From a virus (lineage: Duplodnaviria > Heunggongvirae > Uroviricota > Caudoviricetes), in the IMG/VR virus record IMGVR_UViG_2778261344_000018: 6,284 nt of DNA; one strand, given 5' to 3'. The translations under genes and the position numbers were made by a program. The notes below the pieces were generated by a model. The model ran no database searches and was not told the DNA's origin. It saw only the letters and a list, made by a program, of their open reading frames with translations. Shown here in pieces: positions 1,123 through 6,284 of this stretch; the first letter of the stretch is position 1; every line of letters begins with the position of its first letter.

Positions 1123-1199
1123 TGGCGCGTTGTACTGGATTCGAACCAGTGACCGATTGCTTAGAAGGCAATTGCTCTGTCCGACTGAGCTAACAACGC
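1123..1199 (-). tRNA. argO: tRNA-Arg, anticodon UCU (reads AGA/AGG)
   Basis: 77-nt cloverleaf read by hand: acceptor GCGTTGT/ACAACGC, D-stem GCTC/GAGC, anticodon stem ATTGC/GCAAT with loop CTTCTAA, T-arm ACTGG-TTCGAAT-CCAGT, encoded CCA. Symbol follows the ileZ-argN-argO order remembered from Stx-phage literature. Confidence 0.85.
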
Positions 1200-1212
1200 A
1201 TGATGCTGATAA

Positions 1213-1289
1213 TGGACCGCCATCGGGGACTTGAACCCCGCACAGCCAGCTTCGAAGGCTGACGCTCTATCCCGATGAGCTAATGGCGG
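1213..1289 (-). tRNA. argN: tRNA-Arg, anticodon UCG (reads CGA/CGG)
   Basis: 77-nt cloverleaf: acceptor CCGCCAT/ATGGCGG, D-stem GCTC/GAGC, anticodon stem TCAGC/GCTGG with loop CTTCGAA, T-arm CGGGG-TTCAAGT-CCCCG, encoded CCA. C1:G72 and a U discriminator are atypical; isotype from anticodon only. Confidence 0.8.
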
Positions 1290-1296
1290 TTTGTGA

Positions 1297-1372
1297 TGGT
1301 GGCCCTTGCTGGATTTGAACCAGCGACCTGGCGATTATGAGTCGCTCGCTCTCACCACTGAGCTAAAGGGCC
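1297..1372 (-). tRNA. ileZ: tRNA with CAU anticodon, most likely tRNA-Ile2 (lysidine, reads AUA)
   Basis: 76-nt cloverleaf: acceptor GGCCCTT/AAGGGCC, anticodon loop CTCATAA, T-arm GCTGG-TTCAAAT-CCAGC, encoded CCA. Close to the E. coli ileX sequence as I remember it, which favours Ile2 over elongator Met. Confidence 0.8.
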
Positions 1373-1741: not shown

Positions 1742-1768
1742 ACAAAAAAACCCGCGCATCGGCGGGTT
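1742..1768 (-). terminator. Intrinsic terminator just downstream of the candidate late promoter
   Basis: Minus strand reads CCCGC-cgatgc-GCGGG followed by TTTTTTTGTA. Confidence 0.55.
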
Positions 1769-1814
1769 CTTAAATCTTATCAACGGTAGACATACAAAGC
1801 CCATCGTTGGGAAA

Positions 1815-1843
1815 ATCTTATCCATATTTTTTGAAAAATGCAA
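1815..1843 (-). promoter_or_regulatory. Candidate sigma70 late promoter (PR'-like) directly downstream of Q
   Basis: Minus strand TTGCAT (-35; 1843-1838), 17-bp spacer, TAAGAT (-10; 1820-1815), starting 32 nt after the Q stop codon. Hexamer match only; no qut site identified. Confidence 0.3.
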
Positions 1844-1874
1844 GCATCATGTCGTCATCTTCGGCGAAAACCAT

Positions 1875-2627
1875 TTATCTTGTCACCTTTCTCAATTGTA
1901 TCTCTGCATATGCTTCTTCCTGCCAGCACTTTGTAACCAGTTTATCAATGACATCTGCATATCCTTTGTACCACTGATAATCCGTCAGGTCTGGTACCAG
2001 CTTCTGGACATGAAGCCGCGCCAGTGTGGTTGGTAAACTGCTAAACCGGTTTCCATTGCAACGCCCACAAACCTTATAAACAGGCGTGCCATGAAGCCGG
2101 GTTCTTTTTTCATCCAGGACAATACCTTTACCCTTGCACCCTCTGCATGCTGTGCTGACTTCTCCCTTACCATGACAATGCTGACATAGTTCCTTCACCC
2201 ACTCTTCCTTAATAACAGATTCCCCGCTTCTGGAGTGTTTCACCACCTCGCGCAATACATTATGAAATCCAGTACCAGCACAATGCTCACAGCGAGCCTT
2301 ACTTGCCGCAGACCTGGAATAATCAGCAAAGGCAAAATTCACAAGGTAAGGAATGATCTGTAGCCGGGTTTCTTCACTCAATTTATTCAATGTCGGGTTA
2401 TCCAGTGCCATCGCGTAATTGAGCAGACCTTCAATCGCAAACTGAGGATCCTGAACACCAACTTTTGCCAGGAATAAAGCAAACCCAAGCGGTGCTTTTG
2501 ACTGCACCATCCCCTGCGCAGCCATCACATCCGTAATTGTTAAACCACCAGAGCCTGTCGCCGGTGCGTCATCGCTCAGTTTTGGAGATTTCGGGGAGTA
2601 ATATTTCGGTAAGGCTTCAAGGTTCAT
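1875..2627 (-). CDS. Late antiterminator Q-like protein (250 aa) with four CxxCxGxG zinc-finger repeats
   Basis: ATG at 2627 with GGAGA SD upstream (the track ORF's first 14 codons lack an SD). Lies between a YdfU-like gene and the promoter/terminator/tRNA block, as Q does in lambdoid phages; 250 aa equals K-12 QuuQ. Contains CEHCAGTG, CQHCHGKG, CRGCKGKG, CGRCNGNR. Function inferred from synteny. Confidence 0.6.
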   Translation of the reverse strand: MNLEALPKYYSPKSPKLSDDAPATGSGGLTITDVMAAQGMVQSKAPLGFALFLAKVGVQDPQFAIEGLLNYAMALDNPTLNKLSEETRLQIIPYLVNFAFADYSRSAASKARCEHCAGTGFHNVLREVVKHSRSGESVIKEEWVKELCQHCHGKGEVSTACRGCKGKGIVLDEKRTRLHGTPVYKVCGRCNGNRFSSLPTTLARLHVQKLVPDLTDYQWYKGYADVIDKLVTKCWQEEAYAEIQLRKVTR

Positions 2628-2640
2628 GCTCGTTCTCCAC

Positions 2641-3690
2641 TTACGCCAGTACGCCAATTGCCAGCGCACGATCGATAAAACGAAATATCAGCTCCAGCTG
2701 AGAGCCATACTTCTCTTCAAATGCCACGGTATCCGCATGAAGCTCGTTGTGATGCTCCCGACACAGCGGTAGCGTGAAAATATCGTGAGATTTTGTCCCC
2801 ATTCCGCCCTGACCATGACCAATCAGGTGATGGGGATCGTCGGCTGGCTTACCACAACACGCACACGGCTGTGTCTTTACCCAGCGTGTGTATTTCTCAT
2901 TTACCCAGCGGCGACGTTTAGGTCGTTTCATGAAGGATTCCGGAGACTCCGGATCAACGGCAATGCTGACCACCGTCTTTTCCTGTGGTGGGTTCTGTTG
3001 CTGGTGGGTGTGAGGCGGTAGCGCAATATTTTTTGTGCGCTGCTTCAGTATGCTGGTGGCGGTCTGTTCTCCCGGTATGATGTCGCTTTCACGGTATACG
3101 GAGCGGATTTTTTCCGCACGCAACCCCAGCGAACGACGTAATACCGCTTCCGGTAGCGCGTCCGCCACCTGATTGCGGACCGCCCACCAGGATAATTCAG
3201 CCAGCGATAATTCCCGTTCCTGTATGCCATTCATTGCGTGGCGGATGACGTCAATCATCCATGCTGACAGGTTTTGTTGAGCAAGTTGCTCGAGTGATTC
3301 TGATGTCTGGTCGCGCAGCTGGTTGTCACAGTGCCAGCACAACACCATCGCGCCGGTACCATAACGGTGAATGACTGTTTCGCTGTGATGATAATCGCCG
3401 TGTGGCCACTGGCAGGATTTCACGTGACGTAATAACCAGTCAGACAGTGCACCTGCACCACCTGCTGCACGAATAACCCGCTCATCGCTGAAAAATGGCA
3501 GTAATGTTTTATCCTCTGCCAGCGGCTGGCGAACGGCAGGAACGACTCCGGACGGCAGACCGCGCATGTTTTTCGGTTCCGGCTCCACCAATATTCTGCC
3601 GTTATGGAATACTGACATTGATTCACGGCCTGGCTTAACGATAACCAGACCGAGTTCCGGTACCAGAACAGGTCGAAGTAATACCCGCAC
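2641..3690 (-). CDS. ydfU: DUF968-family protein with C-terminal HNH-type motif (YdfU-like, 349 aa)
   Basis: Complete ORF with GTG start at 3690 and GGAGG SD overlapping the upstream stop. C-terminus CACCGKPADDPHHLIGHGQGGMGTKSHDIFTLPLCREHHNELH is an HNH-like Cys/His motif. Length equals K-12 Qin YdfU and it sits immediately upstream of Q. Confidence 0.65.
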   Translation of the reverse strand: MRVLLRPVLVPELGLVIVKPGRESMSVFHNGRILVEPEPKNMRGLPSGVVPAVRQPLAEDKTLLPFFSDERVIRAAGGAGALSDWLLRHVKSCQWPHGDYHHSETVIHRYGTGAMVLCWHCDNQLRDQTSESLEQLAQQNLSAWMIDVIRHAMNGIQERELSLAELSWWAVRNQVADALPEAVLRRSLGLRAEKIRSVYRESDIIPGEQTATSILKQRTKNIALPPHTHQQQNPPQEKTVVSIAVDPESPESFMKRPKRRRWVNEKYTRWVKTQPCACCGKPADDPHHLIGHGQGGMGTKSHDIFTLPLCREHHNELHADTVAFEEKYGSQLELIFRFIDRALAIGVLA

Positions 3691-3691
3691 G

Positions 3692-3961
3692 TTACCTCCA
3701 GATGCGCTGCTGGAATGTGCGGGACGGACGCGGTGGGCGTTCGGAATAAGGGAGCCTGGCGGAGATTATCCAGTGACGACGATCGAAGCTGAGATCTTTC
3801 TGAAACTCGTAACCACGCCTGCGGTAACACTGGATCAGCCATTCGGCCTGTTCTTCAGTGCATAGGGGATGCTGGAACCAGTCGGTTTTAAATACGTGCG
3901 AACACCGCCCTTGCCTACTGGCAAGGGCGGCAGAATTGTGCAATCTGCTATCGTGCGCCAT
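3692..3961 (-). CDS. Rem-like small prophage protein (89 aa)
   Basis: ATG at 3961 with GGAG SD 7 nt upstream; its stop abuts the start of the YdfU-like gene. Called Rem-like by position only. Confidence 0.45.
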   Translation of the reverse strand: MAHDSRLHNSAALASRQGRCSHVFKTDWFQHPLCTEEQAEWLIQCYRRRGYEFQKDLSFDRRHWIISARLPYSERPPRPSRTFQQRIWR

Positions 3962-4014
3962 CGGGATCTCCGGTGGCACGGTGTTTCTCAGCGACGGTTC
4001 AAGTCAGCCTGATT

Positions 4015-4242
4015 TTATAGCTGCTTCTGAATATCATCAACAGGTAATCCTGCCAACTCTCTTACCTCAGAAAGAAGAGAAAGGCTTACAACAACCTCAT
4101 TACTTCGCATAACAAAACCACATTGAAAAGAACCATCACTGTTTCTGTAAACAACAACCGGGCGCGTGCTCTCATAAAACCCCGGGATCAAACTGGCTGG
4201 GATTTTCACAACACCTCCTGACGTAAAGGAAATGAAATGCAT
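4015..4242 (-). CDS. Small protein (75 aa) with possible AbrB/MazE-like swapped-hairpin motif
   Basis: ATG at 4242 with a GAGAGAAG-type SD. The segment VKIPASLIPGF...RPVVVYRNSDGSFQ resembles the AbrB/MazE/SpoVT signature; weak, eye-only. Divergent from the plus-strand TA operon. Confidence 0.4.
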   Translation of the reverse strand: MHFISFTSGGVVKIPASLIPGFYESTRPVVVYRNSDGSFQCGFVMRSNEVVVSLSLLSEVRELAGLPVDDIQKQL

Positions 4243-4430
4243 TATCGCTTCTCTCGGACTATAACCATGAAAAGAGACGCATTTCACTCAGTAAATCTGA
4301 GGATTTTATGCGCAAGAACAATGACTTTTTCTGTCTGCCGTTTATACAATCTGAATTACGTCTGTTTTTTGAACACCGATAAATCAGCAAGCATTCTCAA
4401 ATAAAGATTGCCTCCATAGTCCACATGGTG

Positions 4431-4449
4431 TAACACTATGTGTTATATA
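4431..4449 (+). promoter_or_regulatory. Extended -10 promoter (TGtTATATA) overlapped by an inverted-repeat operator for the TA operon
   Basis: TAACAC-tat-GTGTTA inverted repeat at 4431-4445 overlaps TGT+TATATA at 4441-4449; GAGG SD at 4457-4460; ATG at 4466. Confidence 0.45.
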
Positions 4450-4465
4450 AAATGCAGAGGCAGGT

Positions 4466-4837
4466 ATGCGAATTTTCAAAAACGCCTGGTTTGAACGTTT
4501 CGCCCGAAAACATCGGATTTCCGATAAATCGCTGCGCAAAATCGTGGAGCAGGCCGATAAGGGGATCATATCCGCAAATTTGGGTAGTGGTGTCATTAAA
4601 CAAAGATTAGCCCGAAGTGGTGGCGGAAAATCAGGCGGTTACCGGACAATAATTTTTTACCGCGTTGCAGAAAAAGCCTTTTTCATCTACGCATACGCAA
4701 AGAATGAACGAGAGAATATCACTGCTATAGAGGAAAATGCTTTTCGAAAAGCCGCTCCCCATGTCCTCAATCTTACTGATGAACAGCTGGCACAATTGAT
4801 TCAACAAGGCCAGTTCACGGAGGTACCCAATGAGTAA
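4466..4837 (+). CDS. Type II toxin, RelE/ParE superfamily (HigB-2-like), 123 aa
   Basis: Complete ORF, ATG at 4466. Core ...RLARSGGGKSGGYRTIIFYRVAEKAFFIYAYAKNERENI... matches the Gly-rich/RxI(I/F)Y/KNE pattern of HigB-2-type toxins as I remember them; its stop overlaps the next gene's start by 8 nt. Confidence 0.6.
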   Translation: MRIFKNAWFERFARKHRISDKSLRKIVEQADKGIISANLGSGVIKQRLARSGGGKSGGYRTIIFYRVAEKAFFIYAYAKNERENITAIEENAFRKAAPHVLNLTDEQLAQLIQQGQFTEVPNE

Positions 4838-5147
4838 AAATTACCGCAGTGATGCACTTGCATCTGTACATGAAATGATGGAGTCACTCCATGATATCGG
4901 TGCAATCACAAAACAAACTATGCGCGAATTCGATGAAACTTGTCTTCAGCCTGCGCCGGTAATGTCTCCGGAAAGGATCCGTGCACTGCGAGAACGAGAG
5001 CATCTGTCTCAACCTGTTTTTGCCAGATACCTCAACGTCAGTAAAAACCTGATATCAGACTGGGAACGAGGAGTGAAACGCCCGGGAGGTGCAGCTCTTC
5101 GGCTTCTTTCAGTTGTCGAGAAAAACGGGATCCAGGTAATATCCTGA
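4830..5147 (+). CDS. HTH (XRE/Cro-C1 type) antitoxin, HigA-2-like, 105 aa
   Basis: ATG at 4830 with GGAGG SD 6 nt upstream, translationally coupled to the toxin. C-terminal SQPVFARYLNVSKNLISDWERGVKRPGGAALRLL is a typical helix-turn-helix. Confidence 0.65.
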   Translation: MSKNYRSDALASVHEMMESLHDIGAITKQTMREFDETCLQPAPVMSPERIRALREREHLSQPVFARYLNVSKNLISDWERGVKRPGGAALRLLSVVEKNGIQVIS

Positions 5148-5155
5148 TATTCTAA

Positions 5156-5190
5156 TACAACAAAACCCGCCGAAGCAGGTTAAGTGCGGG
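5156..5190 (-). terminator. Probable terminator of the hok transcript
   Basis: Minus-strand stem ACCCGC/GCGGGT (5165-5170 with 5186-5191) with a 15-nt loop, followed by TTTTGTTGTATT. The large loop lowers confidence. Confidence 0.35.
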
Positions 5191-5220
5191 TGCGTTGAGG
5201 ATGCCTGACACATCAGAGGT

Positions 5221-5242
5221 GGCGAGGGATTTCTCCCTCGCC
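5221..5242. other. Perfect 9-bp stem hairpin in the convergent intergenic region
   Basis: GGCGAGGGA-tttc-TCCCTCGCC lies between the ends of the plus-strand TA operon and minus-strand hok. No clean U-tract on either strand; could be part of the hok 3' fold-back element. Confidence 0.4.
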
Positions 5243-5249
5243 AGGTCTC

Positions 5250-5405
5250 TTACTCCTCAGGTTCGTAAGCTGTGAAGACAGCGACCTCCGTCTGGCCGGT
5301 TCGGATTCGTACCTCGCAGAGGTCTTTCCTCGTTACCAGTGCCGTCACTATGACGGTTAAACAGATGACGATCAGGGCGATTAACATCGCCTTTTGCTGC
5401 TTCAT
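5250..5405 (-). CDS. hokD: Hok/Gef-family membrane toxin (51 aa), HokD-like
   Basis: ATG at 5405 with AAGGAG SD. MKQQKAMLIALIVICLTVIVTALVTRKDLCEVRIRTGQTEVAVFTAYEPEE has the single TM helix and conserved Cys/Glu C-terminus of Hok. The track's 70-aa ORF is an in-frame extension from ATG 5462 with no SD. Confidence 0.85.
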   Translation of the reverse strand: MKQQKAMLIALIVICLTVIVTALVTRKDLCEVRIRTGQTEVAVFTAYEPEE

Positions 5406-5639
5406 AGCCTGCTTCTCCTTGCCTTTCGGCACGTAAGAGGCTAACCTACATGTGCAAAGCATGAAATTGGCCTCAGATTAATGTTAAGCGTCCTGCAAGA
5501 CGCGTAATGTTAACTGGGGCTTTTCTCTGTCTGCCTTACGGCGGCATGCCCGAGGCAGACAGCCTCAAGCACCCGCAGCAATTCTACTTAACTCTTCTTT
5601 CCCCGCAAATCATTTTATCCCCGATGGTAATGTTCTCCC

Positions 5640-5676: not shown

Positions 5677-6085
5677 TTAAAGCTCCATTAATTTTCCGGC
5701 CAGTTCATCTCGTGGCATTACCAGCCATCCGCGCGATTTAAGCAAAGCCAGGGCTTCTTCAACCGTCACCAGCTGGCCAGGCGCATAACTTCGGATGAAG
5801 GCGGTTTTATCGTCACGGATCGCCAGGTGAAAATCGATATTCATTTTTCCCATAGCCCGCTCTTTCTCGTACTGGTTGAAGTAACTGTCTTCGAGTTTTT
5901 CGAATACTTCCCACGCCTGATCGGTTTCGAGCATTTTTGCATGACGGGCTGCTCCGCGTTCTGTCCAGAGGATGAGAGTGCGGGTTTTGGGAGAAATTTT
6001 CACCTCATTTTGCGACTCGTTTAAAACTAGTCGCAAATTTTTGAGCTCATCACCAACAGCTTTAAAGAAGTGTTTTCCCTCAATA
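5677..6085 (-). pseudogene. 5'-truncated prophage gene (about 136 codons remain), interrupted by IS insertion
   Basis: The frame ending at TAA 5679-5677 runs upstream into the IS terminal repeat at 6086. The first in-frame Met of the non-IS part is about 50 codons in, so the native N-terminus is missing. Product unknown (possibly Bro-N/antirepressor-like; very tentative). Confidence 0.45.
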
Positions 6086-6284
6086 TGAACCGCCCCGGGT
6101 TTCCTGGAGAGTGTTTTATCTGTGAACTCAGGCTGCCAGATCATTATTTCCGATGGAAGCATAATAAGCTTTTTCTGCTTCTGCCGGAGGAATATGGCCC
6201 AGCCTTTCCAGCAATCGTCGATTGTTATACCAGTCCACCCACGTGAGTGTGGCCAGTTCCACTTCTGCACGGTTTTTCCAGCTC
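6086..6284 (-). mobile_element. Right end of an IS3-family insertion sequence (IS629/IS1203-like), continuing beyond the window
   Basis: Plus strand at 6086 reads TGAACCGCCCCGGGTTTCCTGGAGAGTG..., which I recognise from memory as the IS629 terminal inverted repeat; a transposase reading frame on the minus strand ends 42 bp inside it. Confidence 0.65.
6128..6284 (-). CDS. IS3-family transposase OrfB, C-terminal 51 codons (5' part outside window)
   Basis: Minus frame open from the window edge translates ...SWKNRAEVELATLTWVDWYNNRRLLERLGHIPPAEAEKAYYASIGNDDLAA*, stop at 6130-6128. The WVDWYNNRRL...PPAE tail is typical of the rve integrase-core C-terminus. Not in the ORF track because it has no start in the window. 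Confidence 0.65.
   Translation of the reverse strand, partial: SWKNRAEVELATLTWVDWYNNRRLLERLGHIPPAEAEKAYYASIGNNDLAA

Follow-up and report, generated by a model that had tools for sequence, protein, structure and literature searches.

The window, the whole stretch of 6,284 nucleotides that we analysed, is 99.8% identical to O103:H2 strain 129 from end to end and represents the nin/Q region of a lambdoid prophage of Shiga-toxin-type Escherichia coli. The phage genes run along the minus strand of the window. Read in their own direction, they begin with an ORF6N antirepressor gene, interrupted by an IS3-family element, followed by hok with its leader (an Rfam sok match of 117 bits), a toxin-antitoxin pair on the opposite strand, and then two small ORFs, a DUF968 gene, the Q antiterminator gene and three tRNA genes. 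The features around the pair, referred to below together with its operator as the module, are:

4429-4447, no strand: 19-bp palindromic operator (predicted), TGTAACAC-tat-GTGTTATA, with arms complementary at 7 of 8 positions
4466-4837, plus strand: toxin gene, 123 aa, PF06296 (HigB-2 family, RelE/ParE superfamily)
4830-5147, plus strand: antitoxin gene, 105 aa, with a C-terminal helix-turn-helix (HTH)
4429-5136, plus strand: mobile cassette of operator and both genes, common to different prophage contexts
5164-5181, minus strand: terminator of the hok transcript, a hairpin followed by a T-run in the terminator scan
5250-5405, minus strand: hok, convergent with the toxin-antitoxin pair

The preliminary description, made from the letters of the DNA, had placed a toxin-first pair here with hok on the opposite strand and convergent with it, and both observations hold. 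The terminator scan found no plus-strand T-run after the hairpin at 5164-5181, and the module is therefore without an obvious terminator of its own.

A Shine-Dalgarno-like GAGG (4457-4460) lies 5 nt 5' of the toxin ATG. The toxin matches PF06296, its sole Pfam family, from end to end, with residues 1-120 on profile positions 1-120 (E=1.4e-47; 161.3 bits against a cut-off of 27). A 55-residue fragment of Vibrio cholerae HigB-2, taken from the PDB alignment, also exceeds the PF06296 cut-off, and a recent survey assigns HigB-2 (Q9KMA6) to this family and K-12 RelE to PF05016 (Gerdes 2025, PMC11980606). The closest solved relatives of the toxin by sequence are the V. cholerae HigB-2 chains, a weak similarity with an E value of about 4e-4 over residues 38-90 only. 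To compare folds we used an AlphaFold2 model built with 25 relatives, which is of moderate quality (mean pLDDT 77.3, pTM 0.72; one of five models confident); in this model the predicted order of elements, beta-alpha-alpha-beta4-alpha-alpha, is that of a RelE-like (BECR) fold, and in a Foldseek search of the PDB the best 10 matches are VcHigB2 without exception (probability 0.97-1.0, TM 0.50-0.61). Mutagenesis of VcHigB2 has shown that Arg51, Arg64, Tyr82 and Lys84 matter (PMC5416850), and these residues align to R47, R60, Y77 and K79 of the toxin. R47, R60 and K79 are invariant across the 25-relative alignment, whereas position 77 is Tyr or Phe and Y75 is invariant, which leaves the assignment of the catalytic tyrosine uncertain. 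By homology to the V. cholerae and Acinetobacter baumannii HigBA2 systems, the toxin is predicted to be a ribosome-dependent mRNA endonuclease. Membership of the K-12 RelBE family was considered and rejected, as the toxin belongs to PF06296 and not PF05016, the toxin gene comes first and the antitoxin is an HTH_3 protein.

The antitoxin gene has its own Shine-Dalgarno-like sequence (GGAGG at 4819-4823, 6 nt 5' of its ATG) and shares an 8-nt overlap with the toxin gene, ATGAGTAA. Its product carries an HTH_3 (XRE-type HTH) match at residues 50-94, and among solved structures it is closest to V. cholerae HigA-2 (E=6.7e-8), with residues 45-99 aligning on VcHigA2 39-93. Residues 1-44 are strongly conserved family-wide and of the right length, and give no alignment to VcHigA2. 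The Pfam search thus places the two proteins in the RelE/ParE-HTH type of toxin-antitoxin pair and, together with the solved relatives, bears out the HigB-2/HigA-2-like family proposed earlier. As the antitoxin is also 28% identical to K-12 YiaG, over an alignment of about 90 residues, it falls in the broad group of relE-yiaG modules; against the NCBIfam YiaG equivalog model (NF007481) it scores 24.6 bits, below the cut-off of 110. The pairing itself is general: the antitoxin gene stands directly 3' of the toxin gene and overlaps it in 77 of 80 species loci, and at the other three the contig stops just past the toxin gene. The two genes are hence adjacent, co-oriented and co-inherited, as is characteristic of type II toxin-antitoxin systems.

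We then turn to the sequence upstream of the toxin gene, where the preliminary description had pointed to an inverted repeat at 4431-4445 as an autoregulatory operator. The repeat, TAACAC-tat-GTGTTA, is present and forms the perfect core of the 19-bp palindrome at 4429-4447. Taken alone it is not significant, because when the 100 nt upstream are shuffled, 21% of the shuffled sequences contain a 6/6 repeat whose spacer is 9 nt or shorter; its significance comes from the conservation of the longer palindrome. In an alignment of the sequences 5' of the toxin gene in E. coli and Salmonella relatives, whose toxins are 62-89% identical to that of the window, the sole conserved block was TGTAAyACTATGTGTTAy, with unrelated flanks. 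Extending the comparison to 80 species loci from Proteobacteria, Acidobacteriota, Chloroflexota, Cyanobacteria, Deinococcota and others, we found the 19-bp motif (consensus TrTmAyAC-N3-GTrTkATA) at 78 of 79 species loci, and at 87 of the 88 related loci with enough upstream sequence. Its distance from the toxin start downstream of it is 13-42 nt, apart from one outlier at 7 nt for which the start is uncertain. An operator weight matrix gave a mean of 23.7 upstream and a best score of -0.9 in coding-sequence controls; since the matrix was trained on the same upstream regions that it scores, what carries weight is how far these scores lie above those of the coding controls.

The half-sites also change symmetrically, for instance from AACAC..GTGTT to GGCAC..GTGCT, and they do so together with the antitoxin. 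The recognition helix NVSKNLvSDWERGvK goes with AAC/AAT/CAC half-sites and NVTsSLVSKWERGEK with GCAC..GTGC half-sites, a co-variation that is based largely on one clade and could therefore reflect a single event. Because the palindrome recurs across these loci and changes with the recognition helix, we regard it as a genuine predicted operator, and there is strong computational support for 4429-4447 being bound by the antitoxin in an autoregulatory manner, as had been suggested. VcHigA2 protects a single 19-bp inverted repeat, TGTACGC-N5-GCGTACA, from the -35 through the -10 (PMC11006873). Its four base-contacting residues all differ in the window antitoxin (N73, S76, D77 and V82), so DNA recognition is not transferable residue by residue, and these differences agree with the window operator differing in sequence from that of V. 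cholerae. A kinship between the two operators, which share a length of 19 bp and, in some copies, outer TGTA..TACA, was set aside for the same reason, and the resemblance is possibly coincidental. We also considered a LexA box and rejected it, as the window motif does not contain CTGT-N8-ACAG; Salmonella higB-2, a listed SOS locus, offers no precedent, since the LexA box there is distant and shared with a neighbouring gene.

Four candidate promoters can be placed around the operator:

4321-4350, plus strand: ATGACT-18-TACAAT, the sole plus-strand call of the promoter scan
4408-4436: TTGCCT-17-TAACAC, from consensus
4441-4449, plus strand: extended -10 TG-t-TATATA, overlapping the right operator arm, putative
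4446-4451, plus strand: -10 TATAAA, homologous to the -10 of family members with TTGAAn-17-TAnnnT, putative

None of the four is decisive from its consensus, and the promoter position is offered as a prediction. The extended -10 is the one favoured in the preliminary description: the TG-t-TATATA is indeed there, but its final T is absent and the promoter scan made no call at this site, which leaves it plausible but weak. Two geometries recur in the family. In many relatives a TTGAAn abuts the 5' edge of the operator and the -10 begins at operator position 18, and in enteric relatives a TTGCAG-17-TACTAT is centred on the operator. The window fits neither well, and its -35 at the family-homologous position is poor. 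Every operator-proximal candidate overlaps the operator. The site at 4321-4350 lies 116 nt 5' of the toxin ATG and outside the mobile cassette; one other locus (L010) keeps hexamers of this type as ATGACT-18-TATACT, and if this promoter were used, the operator would serve as a downstream roadblock.

The limits of the cassette follow from comparison with loci L003-L009. In blastn searches the homology to the window runs from 4428/4429, where the operator has its left edge, to 5134-5136 in all contexts, and since it ends exactly there, operator, toxin and antitoxin move as one cassette. A segment containing the module is present in 203 of 5,426 complete E. coli genomes, as compared with 2,771 that carry a rem-type segment, and the module occurs in one of 50,697 phage records. 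Besides O103:H2 strain 129, O145 RM9872 and O157 FDAARGOS_293 are examples of carrier strains. The E. coli and Salmonella copies occupy several slots of lambdoid prophages, both in nin regions and in the int-proximal early-left region, and in every slot their neighbours lie mostly on the strand opposite the module. Relatives are also plasmid-borne, with 27 such plasmids in Rhizobium, Agrobacterium, Halomonas and other genera. The other copies of the module are not beside hok; the adjacency to hok is specific to the context of the window and is not conserved, and a hok-linked functional unit was rejected on this ground.

Altogether, these results indicate that the window very probably carries an intact, autoregulated type II toxin-antitoxin system of the HigB-2/HigA-2 kind (PF06296 toxin with an XRE-HTH antitoxin), borne as a mobile cassette in antisense orientation within a lambdoid prophage of the Shiga-toxin E. 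coli (STEC) type. Gene structure, family, fold, catalytic residues, purifying selection, the operator with its co-variation and the insertion site were computed directly. From these and from the studied relatives we infer that the toxin is toxic, cleaves RNA and is neutralised by the antitoxin, that the antitoxin binds DNA, where the promoter lies and what the module does biologically. By analogy, the toxin would cleave mRNA codons in the ribosomal A site, and the antitoxin would be made from the overlapping, coupled reading frame. The conserved N-terminal segment of the antitoxin may wrap around the toxin and keep it inactive, and an antitoxin dimer is expected to bind the 4429-4447 palindrome through its C-terminal HTH domains and repress the operon. 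The toxin would then be freed once the labile antitoxin is lost.

What the module does for its carrier is a separate matter. In A. baumannii, HigA2 of plasmid pAB120 represses its own promoter with the toxin as co-repressor, and the module stabilises plasmids (PMC5906591). Because studied HigBA2 systems stabilise plasmids and the subfamily is plasmid-borne elsewhere, carrier addiction is the default reading, and selfish stabilisation of the prophage or plasmid is the likeliest role, to which we give about an even chance by analogy. Protection against other phages is a possible by-product of it. That defence is instead the main function, with the module expressed in the lysogen and mediating abortive infection or superinfection exclusion when an infecting phage causes antitoxin loss and translation shut-off, appears rather unlikely. 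The module is prophage-borne and lies on the strand opposite the phage genes, like lysogen-expressed morons, it sits in variable slots shared with antirepressor and hok genes, and HigBAC toxin-antitoxin-chaperone modules, which also belong to the RelE/ParE superfamily, abort phage infection (PMC11980606). However, the toxin has no match among the PADLOC-DB v2 models and the antitoxin only generic HTH matches, the PHROG families of both proteins are annotated as of unknown function, and members of the subfamily are frequent in many phyla, both chromosomal and plasmid-borne, which fits general addiction. The functions demonstrated for HigBA2 relatives are, moreover, plasmid stabilisation and stress-induced transcription. 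If a role in phage defence or an effect on the induction of Shiga-toxin-type prophages were true, it would be relevant to the biology of enterohaemorrhagic E. coli (EHEC).

It is tempting to speculate that the antisense placement is itself functional, a proposal to which we assign a low probability. The lysogen would express the module from its own operator-controlled promoter, and upon prophage induction, or superinfection by a related phage, strong head-on early-right transcription would switch off antitoxin synthesis and free the toxin, which could act as a timed switch of host translation or as a trigger of abortive infection. The convergent hok/sok locus, whose 3' end faces the module, might act jointly with it, and in that case a type I and a type II toxin-antitoxin system would both be linked to prophage induction.

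A very improbable alternative is that the module is a decayed or domesticated remnant with an inactive toxin, whose HTH protein has no function left but the control of transcription, a role proposed for orphan YiaG. The distant relationship of the antitoxin to this orphan regulator (at the identity given above) would be in keeping with such a fate, as would the alanine at antitoxin position 88, which is proline in more than 90% of relatives, and the truncation of some E. coli toxin copies (P0010-P0012 and the short CDS in phage PhiR12_3). In the window, however, both genes are full-length relative to the family, the catalytic residues are kept, and alanine at position 88 also occurs in intact copies from Acidobacteriota. 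Purifying selection acts strongly on both genes (dN/dS 0.04-0.13 for the two together), with values of 0.06-0.10 for the toxin gene and 0.04-0.13 for the antitoxin gene, far below 1, at synonymous sites that are near saturation in each.

The insertion site was determined by comparison with the Qin prophage of E. coli K-12, with which the window shares homology at 1747-4001 (Q, DUF968 and a small ORF) and at 5162-5419 (the hok terminator and hokD), the second block starting by the terminator hairpin. Between these blocks K-12 has 405 bp with rem, and the window has 1160 bp with an ORF at 4015-4209 and the module. This ORF resembles Rem significantly in a C-terminal block (local score 52 against 22 ± 4 for shuffled sequences, with none of 2000 shuffles reaching 52) and is thus probably a divergent rem allele. 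Because it resembles Rem, the module is an insertion between a rem-like gene and the hok terminator, with no exchange of genes. The preliminary description had instead put the module where relBE stands in K-12 Qin and proposed that it had replaced that pair at a conserved Qin-like locus beside hok, an idea that hardly retains any credibility. In its favour, both loci hold a type II system beside hokD and upstream of the DUF968 and Q antiterminator genes, and relB, relE and hokD are indeed co-directional in K-12 Qin. Yet relBE lies 5' of hokD, past window position 5419 and thus on the other side of hokD from the module; since that place is taken in the window by the hok leader and its sok match, the module is neither at the relBE position nor in place of relBE. 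The gap that it occupies holds rem in K-12, and a sequence that keeps a rem-like gene has had the module added, not swapped in. The absence of hok beside other copies of the module argues in the same direction.

The proposal that the palindrome arose by chance, in a promoter region that is AT-rich and has overlapping TATA-like hexamers, and is no protein-binding operator, can be dismissed as scarcely credible: shuffled upstream sequences yield a repeat like its core often enough, as noted, but the same 19-mer stands in the same place across phyla between unrelated flanks, its symmetric half-site changes follow those of the recognition helix, and its arms are complementary in 87.8% of cells (G-T counted as paired), a symmetry that is abolished, at 12-59%, when the partner columns are slid.

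RefSeq names the two proteins 'type II toxin-antitoxin system RelE/ParE family toxin' and 'helix-turn-helix domain-containing protein', and the family, the fold and the mode of regulation are already known. A literature search by RefSeq accession returned no study of the module, that on DUF1044/PF06296 returned surveys only, and in the literature searched we found no description of a family-wide operator. The present analysis adds a precise and testable predicted operator for a very widespread, unusually conserved and uncharacterised HigBA2-type subfamily, together with the limits of the mobile cassette and a corrected comparison of the locus with K-12 Qin. Its practical value is modest.

Among known systems, the module is closest to HigB-2/HigA-2 of V. 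cholerae (VCA0468/0469; PDB 5JAA, 5JA8 and 8A0X), the top PDB match by both sequence and fold. The two share a PF06296 toxin and toxin-first order, similar sizes (123 + 105 aa in the window, 110 + 104 aa in V. cholerae), the alignment of the RelE-like catalytic Arg, Arg, Tyr and Lys, and an antitoxin with an N-terminal toxin-binding part (predicted in the window) and a C-terminal XRE HTH, as well as a single 19-bp inverted-repeat operator at the promoter (likewise predicted in the window). In contrast, identity is only about 20%, and sequence similarity is confined to the toxin's beta-sheet core and the antitoxin's HTH. The operator is built as 8-N3-8 in the window (TGTAACAC tat GTGTTATA) and as 7-N5-7 in V. 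cholerae (TGTACGC N5 GCGTACA), and the carrier is a lambdoid prophage in the former and a superintegron cassette in the latter. HigBA2 of A. baumannii pAB120, which we compared by description only, is likewise toxin-first with a ribonuclease toxin, and it is plasmid-borne, as are relatives of the window module, although it belongs to another host and another carrier element. The relE-yiaG modules place PF06296 toxins 5' of YiaG-like proteins whose HTH resembles HigA2 (PMC11980606); toxins of this subgroup have extended disordered N-termini, whereas that of the window toxin is short and highly conserved among its relatives.

The remaining two systems are more distant. RelBE of K-12 Qin is also a type II system with a toxin of the RelE/ParE superfamily, located beside hokD in a related lambdoid prophage, and K-12 RelE is a ribosome-dependent mRNase, the same activity that we propose for the window toxin. 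However, RelE belongs to PF05016, the antitoxin gene comes first and RelB is no HTH protein, and relBE is co-directional with hokD on its 5' side, whereas in the window the module is on the 3' side of hok and encoded by the other strand. HigBA of Proteus vulgaris (Rts1) resembles the module in having the toxin first and an XRE-HTH antitoxin that represses at promoter-overlapping operators, but its toxin belongs to PF05015 and its antitoxin leaves the active site uncovered and has no N-terminal segment for neutralisation.

Conservation of the HigB-2/HigA-2-like toxin-antitoxin subfamily between phyla is unusually high: across 80 species loci (L011-L090; alignment A2), toxins share 50-66% and antitoxins 49-82% identity with the window proteins. 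Nearly every position of the toxin's N-terminus is invariant (invariant columns R-x-FKNAWF-x-RF-x-RK), and the operator is likewise common to the subfamily across phyla in these loci. Residue 88 of the antitoxin (window 5091-5093) is Ala in the window and Pro in more than 90% of relatives (GGPALRLL), and Ala is also seen at this position in Acidobacteriota copies that are intact. The toxin gene starts with ATG in the window; GTG or TTG is the apparent start in approximately 48 of the 80 species loci. The Salmonella toxins (L007-L009) are called as 127 aa, and their annotated start probably lies four codons too early; a GTG where E. coli has ATG gives a 123-aa toxin, a length typical of the family.

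Only one of 50,697 phage records, Escherichia phage PhiR12_3 (L092, PV340552.1), carries the module, with 79% identity and at the following position:
3501-4223, module near the integrase end.
The toxin CDS is annotated there at just 85 aa, so the module or its toxin may be disrupted. An E. coli variant with an 85%-identical toxin (L003-L006) has an additional plus-strand gene immediately 3' of the antitoxin gene:
L003 4696-5001, plus strand, HTH_3 protein of 101 aa, also in L004-L006 (90 aa as called in L006).
This arrangement may represent a three-component form of the module; the window module lacks the third gene.

Several features surround the module in the window:
1123-1372, minus strand, three tRNA genes, Met(CAT), Arg(TCG) and Arg(TCT), directly downstream of the Q antiterminator gene.
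4015-4209, minus strand, small ORF, 64 aa in RefSeq, PHROG 31309.
5250-5574, minus strand, hok and its upstream leader; the leader matches Rfam sok RF01794 at 117 bits.
5677-6085, minus strand, ORF6N antirepressor gene, adjoining the IS3-family transposase end.
6128-6262, minus strand, C-terminal end of the IS3-family transposase, within 6086-6284.

The 5' part of the antirepressor gene appears to be truncated by the IS3-family element, and window matches in many genomes reach no further than 6085. In prophage contexts that differ in other respects, ORF6N-type antirepressor genes are repeatedly found next to the module or close to it (window 5677-6270; L003 2985-3659; L004 2406-3074; L009 4024-4602).

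The 4015-4209 ORF shares a 24-residue C-terminal block with Rem of E. coli K-12, with a local alignment score of 52 versus 22 +/- 4 for shuffles. It probably represents a divergent allele of rem, in the place that rem has in K-12. The hok locus contains a mok-like extended ORF; hokW-sokW of Sp5, a related prophage locus, has been demonstrated to promote phage release (PMC8621323). Homology of K-12 hokD to the window ends 14 nt before the ATG of hok; relBE is found there in K-12, whereas the window hok retains its upstream leader at that place.
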